Assembly: GCA_964407105.1 (NCBI GenBank)
Contig: CAYOUG010000001.1
Span: 8,059 to 72,058 of the forward strand
DNA length: 64,000 nucleotides
Source: an uncultured Candidatus Saccharibacteria bacterium
GTDB taxonomy: Bacteria; Patescibacteriota; Minisyncoccia; Phycocordibacterales; CALRHW01
Direction of reading: 5' to 3'
A model generated the notes under the pieces. That model saw only the letters and a program-made list of their open reading frames with translations, was not told where the DNA came from and made no database searches. Each line of letters starts with the position of its first letter. Positions within the stretch are counted from its first letter, which is position 1. Made by a program: the position numbers and the translations under genes. Shown here in pieces: positions 3,057 through 63,330 of the stretch.

Positions 3057-4013
3057 ATGGTTGAATTTTTAAATACCCACAAAAACATGAAATACGACAA
3101 ACAATACCCCATTAAAATTCTACCGAAATCAGACTTTCCACCACTACTAAAACATATCAATGATCCGCCACAAACACTCTATATAAGAGGTGTTCTACCA
3201 AACGACCCAGAAACCAAATATCTTTGTGTGGTGGGTTCACGAGCATATACAAATTATGGAGAAGAAGTGTGTAAAACACTCATATCTGGCTTACGAGGAC
3301 AAAACATAATAATAGTATCTGGTCTTGCGCTTGGTATTGATTCAATCGCTCACCGCTCTGCACTCGATGCCAAACTTACCACTATTGCTGTACCGGGTTC
3401 TGGTTTAAATTCCCATGTGCTGTATCCGCGAGCAAACTGGCAATTAGCAGAAAAAATTCTTGATTCTGGTGGAGTAATCATTTCTGAAGAAGAACCCTCC
3501 TATCGCGCCACGCCGTATAGTTTTCCAAAACGCAACAGAATTATGGCGGGGATGTCTCATGCTGTGCTTGTTATAGAAGCCGAGCTTAAATCTGGCACAC
3601 TCATCACATCAAAATACGCAACAGAATACAATAGAGACGTTTTCACAGTCCCCGGCTCTATTTTTTCAAAAAAATCTGATGGGCCACACATGCTTCTAAG
3701 ACTGGGCGCTACACCCGTGAGAAAAAGTGATGATATTTTAGAAGCGCTTGGTTTCAGTGTTGAAGATGAAAATAAAAAAGAAAAAACACCGGAACAAATA
3801 CAAGCGCTTTATCAAAAAACTCTTACACTTTGCACACCCGACGAACGCGCCACGCTCAGCATTCTCGCCGACACATCTCATACGCGCGACGAACTCATTA
3901 GACTTCTCACAAAATCTCTTGAAAAACCAGTTTCAGAAATTACAGCATTACTCATGATGATGGAAATTAAAGATCTTATTGTTGAAAAAATGGGAGAAAT
4001 ATTTATAGTGTAA
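3057..4013 (+). CDS. dprA: DNA processing protein DprA (Smf)
   Basis: 318 aa; Rossmann-like DprA core (GSRAYTNYG...GLALGIDSIAHRSAL...VIEAELKSGTLITSKYA). Lies upstream of topA as in many bacteria. Confidence 0.88.
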   Translation: MVEFLNTHKNMKYDKQYPIKILPKSDFPPLLKHINDPPQTLYIRGVLPNDPETKYLCVVGSRAYTNYGEEVCKTLISGLRGQNIIIVSGLALGIDSIAHRSALDAKLTTIAVPGSGLNSHVLYPRANWQLAEKILDSGGVIISEEEPSYRATPYSFPKRNRIMAGMSHAVLVIEAELKSGTLITSKYATEYNRDVFTVPGSIFSKKSDGPHMLLRLGATPVRKSDDILEALGFSVEDENKKEKTPEQIQALYQKTLTLCTPDERATLSILADTSHTRDELIRLLTKSLEKPVSEITALLMMMEIKDLIVEKMGEIFIV

Positions 4014-8358: not shown

Positions 8359-9270
8359 ATGAATGCTCAAAAAAAACTTATTGTAATACTTGGACCAACA
8401 GCTTCTGGAAAAAGTTCACTTGCTGTTGAGATAGCTCGTGATCTAAAAAAAGACGAAATTAATGCAGAAATTATTTCTGCGGACTCACGACAGATATATA
8501 CAGGCCTTGATATTGGCACAGGAAAAATATCACACAAGGAGATGATGGGAATACCCCACCATCTCCTTGATGTTTGTAGTCCCAAAAAATGCAGATTTAC
8601 TGTGGCAGATTTTCAGCGCCGCGCGCATGCGGCTATCGCCGCAATGCATGCGCGCGGCGCAATCCCCATTCTCTGTGGCGGTACCGGCTTTTATATCCAA
8701 TCAATAGTAGACAACATTACTCTACCCGAAGTTCCACCCAACAAAAAACTTCGCGTAAAACTTGAGAAACAAAGCACTGAGAAACTTTTTGAAACTCTCA
8801 AAAAACTCGATTTGAAACGTGCTCGGGGAATTGATGCGTTCAACAGACCACGCCTCATTCGTGCAATTGAAATCGCAACAGCTCTTGGAAAAGTACCCGC
8901 TGTAAAATCGCGGCCACTGTATGATGTTTTGCAAATTGGAATTATGACAGATGAGAAAAAATTGCGAGCACGCATTCACGAACGCCTTTTTGCACGCATG
9001 AAAAAAGGCATGCTGACCGAAGCAAAAAAACTTCACGCCCGCGGACTTTCATACACACGCATGAATGAGCTTGGTTTGGAATACAAATACCTTGCCTTGT
9101 TTTTACAGAAAAAAATCTCACGCGCAGAAATGCTTAAAACACTTGAACAAGAAATCTGGCACTACGCAAAACGCCAAATGACGTGGTTTAAAAAGGATAC
9201 ACGCATTGCGTGGTTTCCTCTTTCAAAGAAGGTTACGATTAAAAAAGTGGTGCGAAATTTTTTGAAATAA
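8359..9270 (+). CDS. miaA: tRNA dimethylallyltransferase
   Basis: 303 aa; P-loop GPTASGKS followed by the IISADSRQIY motif. Confidence 0.9.
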   Translation: MNAQKKLIVILGPTASGKSSLAVEIARDLKKDEINAEIISADSRQIYTGLDIGTGKISHKEMMGIPHHLLDVCSPKKCRFTVADFQRRAHAAIAAMHARGAIPILCGGTGFYIQSIVDNITLPEVPPNKKLRVKLEKQSTEKLFETLKKLDLKRARGIDAFNRPRLIRAIEIATALGKVPAVKSRPLYDVLQIGIMTDEKKLRARIHERLFARMKKGMLTEAKKLHARGLSYTRMNELGLEYKYLALFLQKKISRAEMLKTLEQEIWHYAKRQMTWFKKDTRIAWFPLSKKVTIKKVVRNFLK

Positions 9271-60415: not shown

Positions 60416-60460
60416 GAATACGAGTCTACACCCACAAAAAAACATGTCAAGTGGATATTG

Positions 60461-60533
60461 AGCCACCTCGCAGAATCGAACTGCGGACCCCCACTTTACG
60501 AAAGTGGTGCTCTACCAACTGAGCTAAGGTGGC
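60461..60533 (-). tRNA. tRNA-Thr (anticodon CGT)
   Basis: Reverse complement GCCACCTTAGCTCAGTTGGTAGAGCACCACTTTCGTAAAGTGG...GAGGTGGCT. Confidence 0.85.
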
Positions 60534-60624
60534 GTACATATTTTTTAAGGATACACAAAAAATAACATCTGTGCCATGCATAAAGCGTGCATTGCAAAAG
60601 AAAAAACTTTGACTTTTGTTGCGG

Positions 60625-60697
60625 AGCCGTTGTCCGGGATTGAACCGGAGACCTCGTCATTACCAATGACGTGCTCTACCAACTGAGCTACAACGGC
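60625..60697 (-). tRNA. tRNA-Thr (anticodon GGT)
   Basis: Reverse complement GCCGTTGTAGCTCAGTTGGTAGAGCACGTCATTGGTAATGACG...GACAACGGCT. Confidence 0.85.
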
Positions 60698-60811
60698 ACT
60701 AATTAGTATTTGTGAATCATACTACAGGGTACTTTTTTTTCAATCTTTAGGGATGAATACTTTAGGAAAACTTTAGCACTTCTTGAGCCGTTGTTTTGTA
60801 ATATATATCCA

Positions 60812-61576
60812 ATGGCGAAATACCAAAAAAAACTCATAGCGATCGAACTCAGGAAAAAAGGACTGAGTATTAATGCTATTGCTAAAAAACTTGATATTTC
60901 AAAAGGAACGGTTAGCTTGTGGTGTAAAGATATGAAACTTACAGAAGAACAAAAAAATGTTTTAAAACAAAATACTATAAAAGCTGGTCATAAAGGCAGA
61001 AGTCTGGGAACAGAAAAACAAAAAAAGAAAAAATTGGATATTGTAAATTTTTATAATAACCTTGCAGAAAAAGATGTTGGGGCACTTTCCAATCGAGATT
61101 TTTTACTTATTGCTGCCGCGCTGTATTGGGGAGAAGGAAGTAAAACCAGCAACAGATTTATTTTTGTGAATTCAGACCCAAACATGATTAAATGTATGTA
61201 TATTTTTTTAACAGAAGTGTTAAAAATTGATAAAAATGACATACGACCCACCATACAAATAAACGAAATCCATCGACCACGTATCGACAAGGTCTTAACT
61301 TTTTGGCATATTTTGCTACAATTACCACTTAGTAGCTTCAATAAACCATATTATGTAAAGACCCCACAAAGAAAAGTCTATGCAAACTATGATTCATATT
61401 ATGGAGTACTAAGACTTAAGATCTTGAAGGGATCACGCATACAGTATAGAATACTGGGTCTTATTAAAGCATTATGTCGAGGTAGCTCAATGGTGGAGCA
61501 GTCGTTTCATAAGCGACAGGATATGGGTTCGACTCCCATCCTCGACACTATTTCAGATAATGATTTAGTGTATTGA
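60812..61576 (+). CDS. HTH + LAGLIDADG-like (single-motif) endonuclease-fold protein; the ORF reads through the tRNA-Met gene
   Basis: N-terminal HTH (KGLSINAIAKKLDISKGTVSLW). FLLIAAALYWGEGSKTSNRFIFVNSD resembles LAGLIDADG (GEG in place of DGDG). No in-frame stop until 61576, so the last ~33 codons overlap the tRNA-Met at 61476-61547. Confidence 0.35.
   Translation: MAKYQKKLIAIELRKKGLSINAIAKKLDISKGTVSLWCKDMKLTEEQKNVLKQNTIKAGHKGRSLGTEKQKKKKLDIVNFYNNLAEKDVGALSNRDFLLIAAALYWGEGSKTSNRFIFVNSDPNMIKCMYIFLTEVLKIDKNDIRPTIQINEIHRPRIDKVLTFWHILLQLPLSSFNKPYYVKTPQRKVYANYDSYYGVLRLKILKGSRIQYRILGLIKALCRGSSMVEQSFHKRQDMGSTPILDTISDNDLVY
61476..61547 (+). tRNA. tRNA-Met (anticodon CAT; elongator Met or Ile2/lysidine type, not initiator-like)
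   Basis: GTCGAGGTAGCTCAATGGTGGAGCAGTCGTTTCATAAGCGACAGGATATGGGTTCGACTCCCATCCTCGACA. Lacks the three G-C pairs that mark an initiator anticodon stem. Confidence 0.8.
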
Positions 61577-61611: not shown

Positions 61612-61685
61612 GCGGTCGTAGCTCAACTGGTTAGAGCACTCGCCTGTCACGTGAGAGGTTGTGGGTTCAAGTCCCATCGGCCGCG
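61612..61685 (+). tRNA. tRNA-Asp (anticodon GTC)
   Basis: GCGGTCGTAGCTCAACTGGTTAGAGCACTCGCCTGTCACGTGAGAGGTTGTGGGTTCAAGTCCCATCGGCCGCG. Confidence 0.85.
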
Positions 61686-61772
61686 CAAATAAAATTTATC
61701 TAAAAAGTCCTTCTTTTGCGGGGTGTTTTTGGTTCTAACCAATGTTTTAGGTACACACATTACCTAATGTGC

Positions 61773-63161: not shown

Positions 63162-63257
63162 GGAGTTAAGTCGTTCACTAAGTTGCGCAGTAAAAAACAT
63201 AATAAAAAAACGACCTTAGGGGTCATTTTTTTATTCAGCTTATAAAATCTTGTTGCG

Positions 63258-63330
63258 GAGGCCGGAATTGCACCGGCGGCTGGAGGTTATGAGCCTCCCG
63301 AGATACTACTTCTCCACCCCGCTATGAAGA
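63258..63330 (-). other. tRNA-like element (CAT anticodon loop, atypical T-loop TGCAATT and imperfect acceptor); possible tRNA pseudogene
   Basis: Reverse complement AGCGGGGTGGAGAAGTAGTATCTCGGGAGGCTCATAACCTCCAGCCGCCGGTGCAATTCCGGCCTCCGCA. D stem gaga/tctc, anticodon stem ggagg/cctcc and T stem gccgg/ccggc all fold. Position 55 is G and the acceptor has a mismatch. Confidence 0.3.

Follow-up and report, generated by a model that had tools for sequence, protein, structure and literature searches.

A probable family of tRNA-associated, free-standing homing endonuclease genes with a LAGLIDADG-like domain in Patescibacteria, seen from a reading frame that runs through a tRNA gene

In a 64,000-nucleotide stretch of contig CAYOUG010000001.1, from an uncultured Candidatus Saccharibacteria bacterium (the whole stretch is hereafter called the window), an open reading frame (ORF) is found in a cluster of tRNA genes and continues through the whole length of one of them. 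Three features define this locus:

60812-61576, plus strand: the ORF, 254 codons encoding 254 amino acids (aa), from the ATG at 60812 to the stop TGA at 61574-61576, the 33-aa tail included.
61476-61548, plus strand: tRNA-Met(CAT), hereafter tRNA(CAU), predicted by ARAGORN and lying entirely within the ORF.
61475-61573, plus strand: the tRNA-encoded tail of the ORF, codons 222-254, made of the tRNA and the following 25 nucleotides (nt).

Position +1 of tRNA(CAU) is the second base of codon 222. A first-pass annotation of this DNA had already seen that the C-terminus is encoded by the tRNA, and had placed the first stop 30 nt past the tRNA gene; the read-through is real, but the first in-frame stop lies 26–28 nt beyond the tRNA end. 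The protein that is typical of the family corresponds to aa 1 to ~221–225 of the window ORF, whose 254-aa product is also recorded in NCBI (P0001); an alternative start, TTG at 60791, has no backing from the N-termini of homologs. As for the tRNA, it is undamaged according to both ARAGORN and the Rfam tRNA model (70.1 bits at 61476-61547), and the same is true of the tRNA adjacent to the ORF in 72 of 80 related loci. It belongs to the non-initiator class, elongator Met or Ile2, with G1-C72 paired and the anticodon arm GUCGU-UUCAUAA-GCGAC. It is continuous, Rfam detects no intron between 59000 and 64000, and the ORF is thus outside any intron; the possibility of an intron-encoded ORF was rejected on these grounds. 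An integrase-type island or a transposase was set aside as well, for no such domain is present beyond a weak HTH (helix-turn-helix) similarity and there are no terminal repeats.

At least 571 GTDB species genomes encode a relative of the ORF, and the 80 loci retrieved, all of Patescibacteria, show that its position is not fortuitous. A tRNA gene on the same strand is present within ~100 nt 3' of the ORF in 72 of them, while we estimate that chance would account for less than one locus in 80 (at ~45 tRNA genes per Mb): the adjacency is far above chance. The partner is a non-initiator tRNA(CAU) in 66 cases, tRNA-Gln(UUG) in the five most divergent loci and tRNA-Asp in one. The eight remaining loci consist of two contig ends, where the tail is visibly tRNA-encoded, a subclade of five loci without adjacent tRNA, and one locus with a tRNA(CAU) 95 nt from the end of the match.

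Overlap of the two genes is frequent, the stop codon of the ORF being located within the tRNA in 46 of the 80 loci, and 18 more ORFs end 0–16 nt ahead of it. The modal overlap is 10 nt (26 loci), where the ORF ends on the TAG of U8-A9-G10, a universally conserved trio; five loci overlap by 21–23 nt, with the TAG of the D loop (GGUUAGAGC) as a stop, and eight by 38–39 nt, which use the UAA of the anticodon loop (CAU-AA). With these three stops at hand, each reading frame normally meets one within the tRNA. For the window ORF the frame is that of the D loop; the D loop of its tRNA is short (GGUGGAGC) and devoid of the TAG that usually stops this frame, and further on its CAU-AAG is translated as His-Lys, so that the frame runs through the whole tRNA. 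A sequencing error, which the first-pass annotation had raised as a possibility, is needless as an explanation of the read-through, since the same type of tRNA-encoded tail (SSMVEQ..FHK.) is found in independent homologs (L054, P0012 and P0058). In locus L126 a 96%-identical tRNA stands beside a 48%-identical ORF in another frame, which stops at U8-A9-G10. The read-through is therefore the extreme case of a family-wide rule and not an oddity of the window copy. The proposal that the gene uses the tRNA sequence as its 3' end is true in this sense, but it describes a by-product of the position shared by the family and nothing particular to this copy. The extra 33 aa of the window protein are themselves best taken as a by-product that is tolerated.

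A word-indexed search gave 92 homologs of the window ORF at E<=1e-3, all the named ones from Patescibacteria. They are typically 220–236 aa long and cover 87% of the query, therefore ending where the tRNA begins; they stop at the equivalent of aa 221–230, and the tail of the window protein has no counterpart in them. The family appears far larger in an exhaustive profile search: 8,263 clusters (50% identity) pass E<=1e-3, and 1,505 of these attain 1e-30. Values of dN/dS between 0.08 and 0.14, obtained from six unsaturated pairs, denote a strong purifying selection. Premature stops affect only 3 of 80 copies (L058 at codon 36, L072 at codon 58, L077 at codon 39), with an intact adjacent tRNA; these are either decaying copies or assembly errors of metagenome-assembled genomes. 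We also noted that many contigs carrying a homolog measure just ~910–1010 bp, which is roughly the distance between two flanking tRNA genes and hints that the conserved tRNAs flanking the ORF are places where assemblies break.

Judged from its coding sequence, the window gene appears intact and functional. It had been proposed to be possibly a degenerate homing endonuclease, an idea that does not survive the intact ORF, a dN/dS of ~0.1 and the near-invariance of the Glu and Lys of its motif. A more radical view would take the ORF as spurious, an artefact of a frame left open across a tRNA, or as the remnant of a dead homing endonuclease gene (HEG); the 33-aa tail is indeed tRNA-encoded and predicted to be disordered, and no Shine-Dalgarno sequence is visible. 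Against it stand the 92 close and the thousands of distant homologs with conserved length and motifs, the same dN/dS of ~0.1, and AlphaFold2 (AF2) models with a predicted local distance difference test (pLDDT) score of 88 and 92. The conservation data effectively refute this view, to which we give hardly any credit.

The protein is composed of the following parts:

60815-60922, plus strand: N-terminal HTH, aa 2-37; Pfam HTH_23 at E 2.7e-6, above its cut-off.
60944-61078, plus strand: single long helix, aa 45-89, joining the HTH to the nuclease-like domain (AF2 model mf9042616bfe8, pLDDT 80–96).
61091-61480, plus strand: LAGLIDADG-like domain, aa 94-223; no Pfam model covers this region.
61121-61144, plus strand: motif LYWGEGSK, aa 104-111, with the putative catalytic Glu108 and Lys111.

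The resolvase-like HTH announced by the first-pass annotation is thus present. HTH_23 matches 29 of 30 family members, and the Pfam scan gave further, weaker matches to HTH_28, HTH_7 (the resolvase model) and HTH_38; in the full-length AF2 model the HTH forms three short helices with a pLDDT above 90. The long helix could, to judge from the model, be a spacer or a dimerisation element. The motif helix appears to be followed by a hairpin and a helix. Both models are confident (pLDDT 88 for the full length, 92.3 for the domain only); in the full-length one the pLDDT drops from 65 to 42 over the tail, aa 221–254, which is predicted to be disordered. Scans of Pfam, NCBIfam and PHROGs gave HTH matches only and no nuclease family.

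The motif, included in FLLIAAALYWGEGSK (aa 97–111 of the window ORF), is strikingly conserved: among 81 sequences, E108 is kept in 80, G109 in all 81 and K111 in 79, and the core displays other conserved residues, namely L104, Y105, W106, N120, S121, D122, N151, H154, R157, W165, K188, N192 and G198. Searching the PDB sequences with the single window sequence returned nothing. The family profile, compared with all PDB sequences, matches the second LAGLIDADG domain of I-DmoI (residues 84–175, E 3.7e-5), the only nuclease matched, and hhalign against this fragment gives a probability of 84.6% (E 6.9e-6). The alignable length is 53–88 columns. In the profile alignment LYWGEGSK falls on LYVAEGDK of I-DmoI, hence E-G-x-K on E-G-D-K, where E117 and K120 of I-DmoI are active-site residues. 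The alignment with I-CreI puts the motif in the expected register, on FVDGDGS, with an E of 0.27 that is not significant. From these profile comparisons we consider it likely, with good confidence, that the C-terminal domain is LAGLIDADG-like and forms a divergent branch beyond the current family models.

The window protein carries a single motif; some relatives have two copies in tandem within one chain. Five of these (P0234, P0251, P0255, P0258 and P0271; 396–576 aa, motif AYWCEGAK, composition of the high-GC type) contain two nuclease-like domains, and most of them also hold two or three HTH regions. By their sequences, chains of this type appear to be single-chain, pseudo-dimeric versions of the family found outside Patescibacteria. 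They would parallel the course known for LAGLIDADG enzymes, in which homodimers gave rise to pseudo-dimeric monomers.

To the left and to the right of the ORF, the neighbourhood comprises:

60460-60533, minus strand: tRNA-Thr(CGU), left flank of the ORF.
60623-60697, minus strand: tRNA-Thr(GGU), left edge of the insertion site, divergent to tRNA(CAU) and in synteny with L085-L089.
60698-60811, no strand: spacer of 114 nt between tRNA-Thr(GGU) and the ORF start.
61612-61686, plus strand: tRNA-Asp(GUC), 63 nt right of tRNA(CAU), a conserved downstream neighbour (the slot being X-Asp).
63252-63323, minus strand: second CAU tRNA of the window, initiator-type, with an A1xA72 mismatch.

ARAGORN and Rfam agree with the flanks initially described, two minus-strand tRNA-Thr genes on the left and tRNA-Met/tRNA-Asp on the right. 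The same annotation had asked if this tRNA-Met was the only CAU tRNA: the initiator-type gene of the window shows that it is not. In many related loci such an initiator-type tRNA(CAU) lies 65–110 nt upstream of the ORF.

The sources of the closest prfB and ORF homologs point to a Patescibacteria/Parcubacteria bacterium as the bearer of this DNA. The closest relatives of the window were picked through the adjacent prfB gene and their loci retrieved. In L085/L086, L087 and L089 (prfB 76–79% identical) the order fMet, Asp, Met, Thr(GGU), prfB and all the orientations are those of the window, and tblastn detects no homolog of the ORF; the gap between tRNA-Met and tRNA-Thr(GGU) measures 79 nt (L085/L086), 242 nt (L087) and 124 nt (L089), compared with 778 nt (spacer and ORF) in the window. 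The very closest loci, L081 and L083 (prfB 85%), have no ORF on the tRNA-Met side, and in them a distant 196-aa paralog ends 25 nt before tRNA-Thr(GGU). Locus L084 (prfB 79%) has no tRNA cluster beside prfB and is hence uninformative on occupancy. On a wider scale, a metagenome scan for the window-type anticodon arm gave 80 loci, 65 of them decidable: the ORF is directly 5' of the tRNA in 21 (32%) and absent in 44. At the empty sites the initiator tRNA lies 5–369 nt upstream, and a -10-like element is usually found 6–15 nt before the tRNA. Among eight occupied sites with an upstream CAU tRNA, the distance from fMet to X is 744–1242 nt in six, the other two having 236 and 2239 nt. The window ORF is an insertion, present in some genomes and absent from others. 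The comparison of orthologous loci, suggested as a check by the first-pass annotation, thus bears out its idea of a landing zone, the same position being empty in relatives.

Several loci hold a second paralog, 30–40% identical, with up to two copies per locus. Its partner differs from one locus to another: tRNA-Ile(UAU) in L042, an intron-bearing tRNA-Thr(GGU) in L056, and no adjacent tRNA in L007, L019 and L025. Relatives are also found in IMG/VR (L090-L104, on contigs of 21–498 kb), 15 out of 15 in loci with 3–23 tRNA genes, up to 23 in 5 kb; in one of them, L098, the ORF overlaps tRNA-Val(UAC) by 10 nt. Some other IMG/VR relatives overlap the 3' end of an antisense tRNA, by 39 nt in L096/97 and by 64 nt in L102. 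The divergence of the ORF compared with that of the host, for which tRNA-Asp was the proxy, gives a Spearman coefficient of 0.11, tRNAs being too short for a clock.

These distributions bear on a second explanation, a domesticated DNA-binding protein with an HTH and a LAGLIDADG-derived domain, comparable to WhiA, which would have given up acting as a mobile nuclease and would instead regulate or protect the transcription of the tRNA operon beside it. Such a protein would be expected to have an HTH and to lie exactly in the promoter region of the tRNA, as the ORF does; the dN/dS of ~0.1, the premature stops limited to 3 of 80 copies, the large size of the family (the 8,263 clusters at 50% identity and E<=1e-3) and the conservation of the ORF-tRNA arrangement across deep lineages of Patescibacteria go in the same direction. 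However, only 21 of 65 decidable sites are occupied and three close syntenic relatives are without the ORF: this patchiness speaks against a domesticated housekeeping gene, which had been one of the initial proposals. Besides, paralogs stand beside differing tRNAs, relatives are located in tRNA-rich loci of viral-classed contigs, and the Glu and Lys that are putatively catalytic hardly ever vary, whereas WhiA has lost its acidic residues. We thus regard a domesticated regulator as unlikely.

In several loci tRNA-Thr(GGU) is split right after the anticodon (GGU/...G/AA) by an insert of 194–215 nt: L081 1736-2010 (plus strand), L083, L160 ~3390-3650, L133, L022, L056 ~3330-3600, L068, L070 and L141. 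ARAGORN and Rfam miss these inserts, and Rfam gives no group I intron call for them. Eight homologous inserts share the motifs CCGAAUWACGGUUAA, AGACCGUGGC, CCCGAACGACUGACAAGG and AAGAUACAGUCUA, and of the 50 pairs in their consensus fold 29 are supported by covariation (compensatory changes). The 5' exon GGU pairs with GCC, so that all eight sequences have a U-G pair at the splice site, and the insert ends in G. As a U-G pair at the splice site and a terminal G are the rule for group I introns, the insert looks, by its sequence, like a small group I intron. The tRNA-Thr(GGU) of the window itself has no insert. In L022 a partial copy of the tRNA 5' end (GCCGTTTTAGCTG...) lies ~60 nt upstream of the split gene, and may be what an earlier recombination or insertion event left behind.

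Directly 5' of the intron-bearing tRNA-Thr(GGU) stands a subfamily of shorter paralogs, of 196 aa, with the motif LYWGEGNK and a different N-terminus (L081 1120-1710, L083, L056 2936-3370, L070 ~8400-8639 on the minus strand, and L008 5306-5719). In L056 the paralog is read across the 5' exon and finds its stop codon within the intron. The same intron is found without the paralog ORF in L160, L068 and L141. The arrangement of paralog and split tRNA recalls, by analogy, cases of collaborative homing in which a free-standing HEG is paired with an intron that has no ORF.

As LAGLIDADG maturases are known, such neighbours raise a third possibility, namely that the protein is directed to RNA: encoded in cis, it would bind the nascent tRNA or the intron and aid folding, splicing or processing. 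The tight cis linkage of ORF and tRNA would suit this role, and so would the 196-aa paralogs that abut the tRNA-Thr(GGU) with the group I-like intron (L081/83, L056, L070), which suggest it for that subfamily only. By contrast, the tRNA(CAU) of the window and nearly all the partner tRNAs are intron-less and canonical, the same intron occurs in the three ORF-less loci just mentioned, the HTH and the conserved acidic motif indicate DNA as the substrate, and occupancy is patchy. A role on RNA appears very improbable for the window protein.

The partner tRNA itself displays an unexpected variability. The tRNA(CAU) of the window shares only 71–74% identity with its syntenic counterparts in four relatives that lack the ORF (L081, L085, L087, L089), while those counterparts are 92–100% alike among themselves and the neighbouring tRNA-Asp, Thr(GGU), Thr(CGU), Gln and fMet are 82–97% identical between the window and those relatives. 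Two types of non-initiator tRNA(CAU), with a U32 (UUCAUAA) or a C32 (CUCAUAA) loop, alternate in one syntenic slot; they are 68–74% identical where the neighbouring tRNAs are 82–100% (window versus relatives, and L016 versus L020), and the alternation occurs even between genomes whose tRNA-Asp are 96–100% identical. This dimorphism could result from co-conversion during homing, or from an alternation of elongator Met and Ile2 genes; concerning the Met or Ile2 identity of the partner, no locus holds both types and the features of the anticodon loop are ambiguous. On the ORF tree the two types are mixed. A constant pairing of the ORF with one particular tRNA allele was rejected as a general rule, the window-type tRNA being without ORF in 44 of 65 decidable loci.

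One might go further and imagine that the ORF and the tRNA form one functional unit: the nuclease would hit rival tRNA alleles, and homing would carry its own linked tRNA allele, which would equal a gene drive on an essential tRNA. Ribonuclease P (RNase P) would gate the expression by removing the stop codon supplied by the tRNA, the product then going to tagging by transfer-messenger RNA. The divergence of the window tRNA(CAU) from its syntenic counterparts in ORF-less relatives is a hint in this direction; the same tRNA type devoid of ORF in 44 of 65 loci, and the 96%-identical tRNA beside a merely 48%-identical ORF, are against it. We find such a unit decidedly doubtful.

For the tRNA to remain expressed downstream of an insertion, a promoter might be provided by the ORF itself, where one more feature was noticed:

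61424-61452, plus strand: promoter-like site TTGAAG-17-TAGAAT, in the 3' end of the ORF, 23 nt before the tRNA.

By its sequence, this site is a candidate independent promoter for tRNA(CAU). Across the family, promoter-like sites are found in 23% of the 70-nt windows right upstream of the tRNA versus 7% in the middle of the ORF, an enrichment of ~3x.

In this family an HTH is followed by a long helix and one LAGLIDADG-like domain, and the place it occupies is the 5' flank of tRNA genes. A single kind of site defined by a conserved gene, patchy occupancy, retargeted paralogs, viral-classed copies in tRNA-rich loci, a catalytic-type motif that has been kept, and a tRNA left intact lead us to favor, as probable without being assured, the interpretation of the window ORF as a free-standing HEG belonging to a previously undescribed family specialised on tRNA genes.

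If so, the protein would dimerise via the helix of its LAGLIDADG-like motif, each subunit providing its Glu108, and the HTH would contribute extra affinity. The predicted activity is the cleavage of ORF-less alleles in or near the conserved 5' part of the tRNA gene; alternatively, another part of the tRNA gene, coding for a hairpin and hence pseudo-palindromic, could be recognised, the variable flank included. Through repair from an ORF-bearing copy, the ORF would then come to separate the tRNA from its former promoter, and the inserted ORF, by replacing the recognised flank, would confer immunity. As the element would end at position +1 of the tRNA, the ORF would borrow a stop codon of the tRNA, which one depending on the frame. 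The tRNA would stay intact and probably be expressed from a promoter in the 3' end of the ORF, or by read-through. If both are co-transcribed, the RNase P cut might leave a stop-less mRNA and so keep the level of the nuclease low. The cleavage activity, the target site, the dimerisation and the coupling between expression and tRNA processing are what we infer from the arrangement and the family comparisons.

Several observations weigh against this interpretation. Pfam LAGLIDADG_1/2/3 and WhiA match none of 30 members, whether in full length or with the domain only. Foldseek finds no significant LAGLIDADG structure with the domain-only model (pLDDT 92), and with the full-length model reaches I-DmoI at an E of 0.12 only; in the AF2 topology of the domain, an additional helix is inserted between strands 3 and 4. 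The membership in LAGLIDADG rests accordingly on the I-DmoI profile match. The first-pass annotation had likened the motif to a LAGLIDADG with GEG in place of DGDG and had proposed to check it against LAGLIDADG_1/2/3: the likeness is upheld by the I-DmoI profile (E 3.7e-5), hhalign (84.6%) and the register of GEG on AEGDK, but the proposed check is negative and neither Pfam nor Foldseek adds support. A near-identical pair of occupied and empty sites, which would have fixed the exact boundaries of the insertion and the co-conversion tracts, was looked for and not found, none being closer than ~70–80% in the flanks. The viral status of the IMG/VR contigs is the classification of the database, taken at face value. 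Strong purifying selection and scarce pseudogenes are also compatible with a gene beneficial to the host. Finally, in the spacer inspected (60698-60811), neither a Shine-Dalgarno sequence ahead of the ATG at 60812 nor a clear promoter for the ORF was found. An AT-rich element, TGTAATATATAT, stops 3–4 nt ahead of this ATG; together with the missing Shine-Dalgarno sequence, it might indicate that the mRNA is leaderless or poorly translated.

If the ORF is nevertheless what we propose, several thousand "hypothetical proteins" would be identified; none of the 8,263 clusters falls under a Pfam nuclease model. These proteins would make up a LAGLIDADG-like lineage new in its architecture and in its niche at the 5' edge of tRNA genes. 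The borrowing of a stop codon from the invariant U8-A9-G10 accounts for a recurrent oddity of annotations, protein genes overlapping tRNA genes. The genomes of the candidate phyla radiation (CPR) are tiny and otherwise poor in mobile DNA. The proteins would be natural nucleases with targets among the most conserved DNA sequences, of interest for the engineering of meganucleases. Besides, the group I-like intron of tRNA-Thr(GGU) and its occasional flanking paralog would let one test, in CPR bacteria, whether an intron and a free-standing endonuclease collaborate. Our full-text literature searches, whose coverage is incomplete, turned up no account of Patescibacteria in which LAGLIDADG genes flank tRNA genes.

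Compared with known systems, the window family shares with I-DmoI and the LAGLIDADG homing endonucleases a motif helix ending with an acidic residue and Gly, the existence of single and tandem two-domain forms, and the tie to conserved RNA genes. It departs from them by its N-terminal HTH and 45-residue helix, by being free-standing instead of encoded in an intron or intein, by its site, the 5' flank of a tRNA, and by the lack of Pfam LAGLIDADG match and of significant Foldseek match, together with the extra helix predicted between strands 3 and 4.

The bacterial regulator WhiA, whose origin is a LAGLIDADG endonuclease joined to an HTH, has two degenerate LAGLIDADG domains and a C-terminal HTH, has lost the catalytic residues, and is conserved in single copy. 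Like WhiA, the window ORF associates LAGLIDADG-type and HTH domains in a protein of a bacterial chromosome; unlike WhiA, it has one such domain, an N-terminal HTH, the Glu and Lys kept, an occupancy of 32% and paralogs. In the case of the cyanophage psbA gene, Zeng, Bonocora and Shub reportedly described in 2009 the collaborative homing of a free-standing HEG and an ORF-less group I intron. The paralog subfamily, directly 5' of a tRNA-Thr(GGU) with an ORF-less group I-like intron, resembles this case, but the likeness is confined to that subfamily, the partner tRNA of the window ORF being without intron.

The closest precedents are located in tRNA gene clusters. SegB of phage T4 is a free-standing homing endonuclease of the GIY-YIG type, encoded in a tRNA cluster, whose 27-bp site contains the conserved T-psi-C motif, and it takes neighbouring tRNA genes along (PMC2330249); HNH homing endonucleases are linked to the tRNA arrays of cyanobacteria (PMC8421152). 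Like SegB, the nuclease-like gene of the window family is free-standing among tRNA genes and missing from related genomes, and it has relatives in tRNA-rich loci of contigs classed as viral. Unlike SegB and the HNH enzymes, the family is LAGLIDADG-like (no GIY-YIG domain was found in the window ORF with Pfam, NCBIfam or PHROGs), mostly chromosomal in Patescibacteria, and placed precisely 5' of one tRNA with its stop inside it. Rather than a member of the SegB group, it would thus probably be its LAGLIDADG-like analogue, and, if this holds, the precedent of endonucleases mobilising tRNA genes would come to include a third nuclease superfamily, and CPR chromosomes as well.

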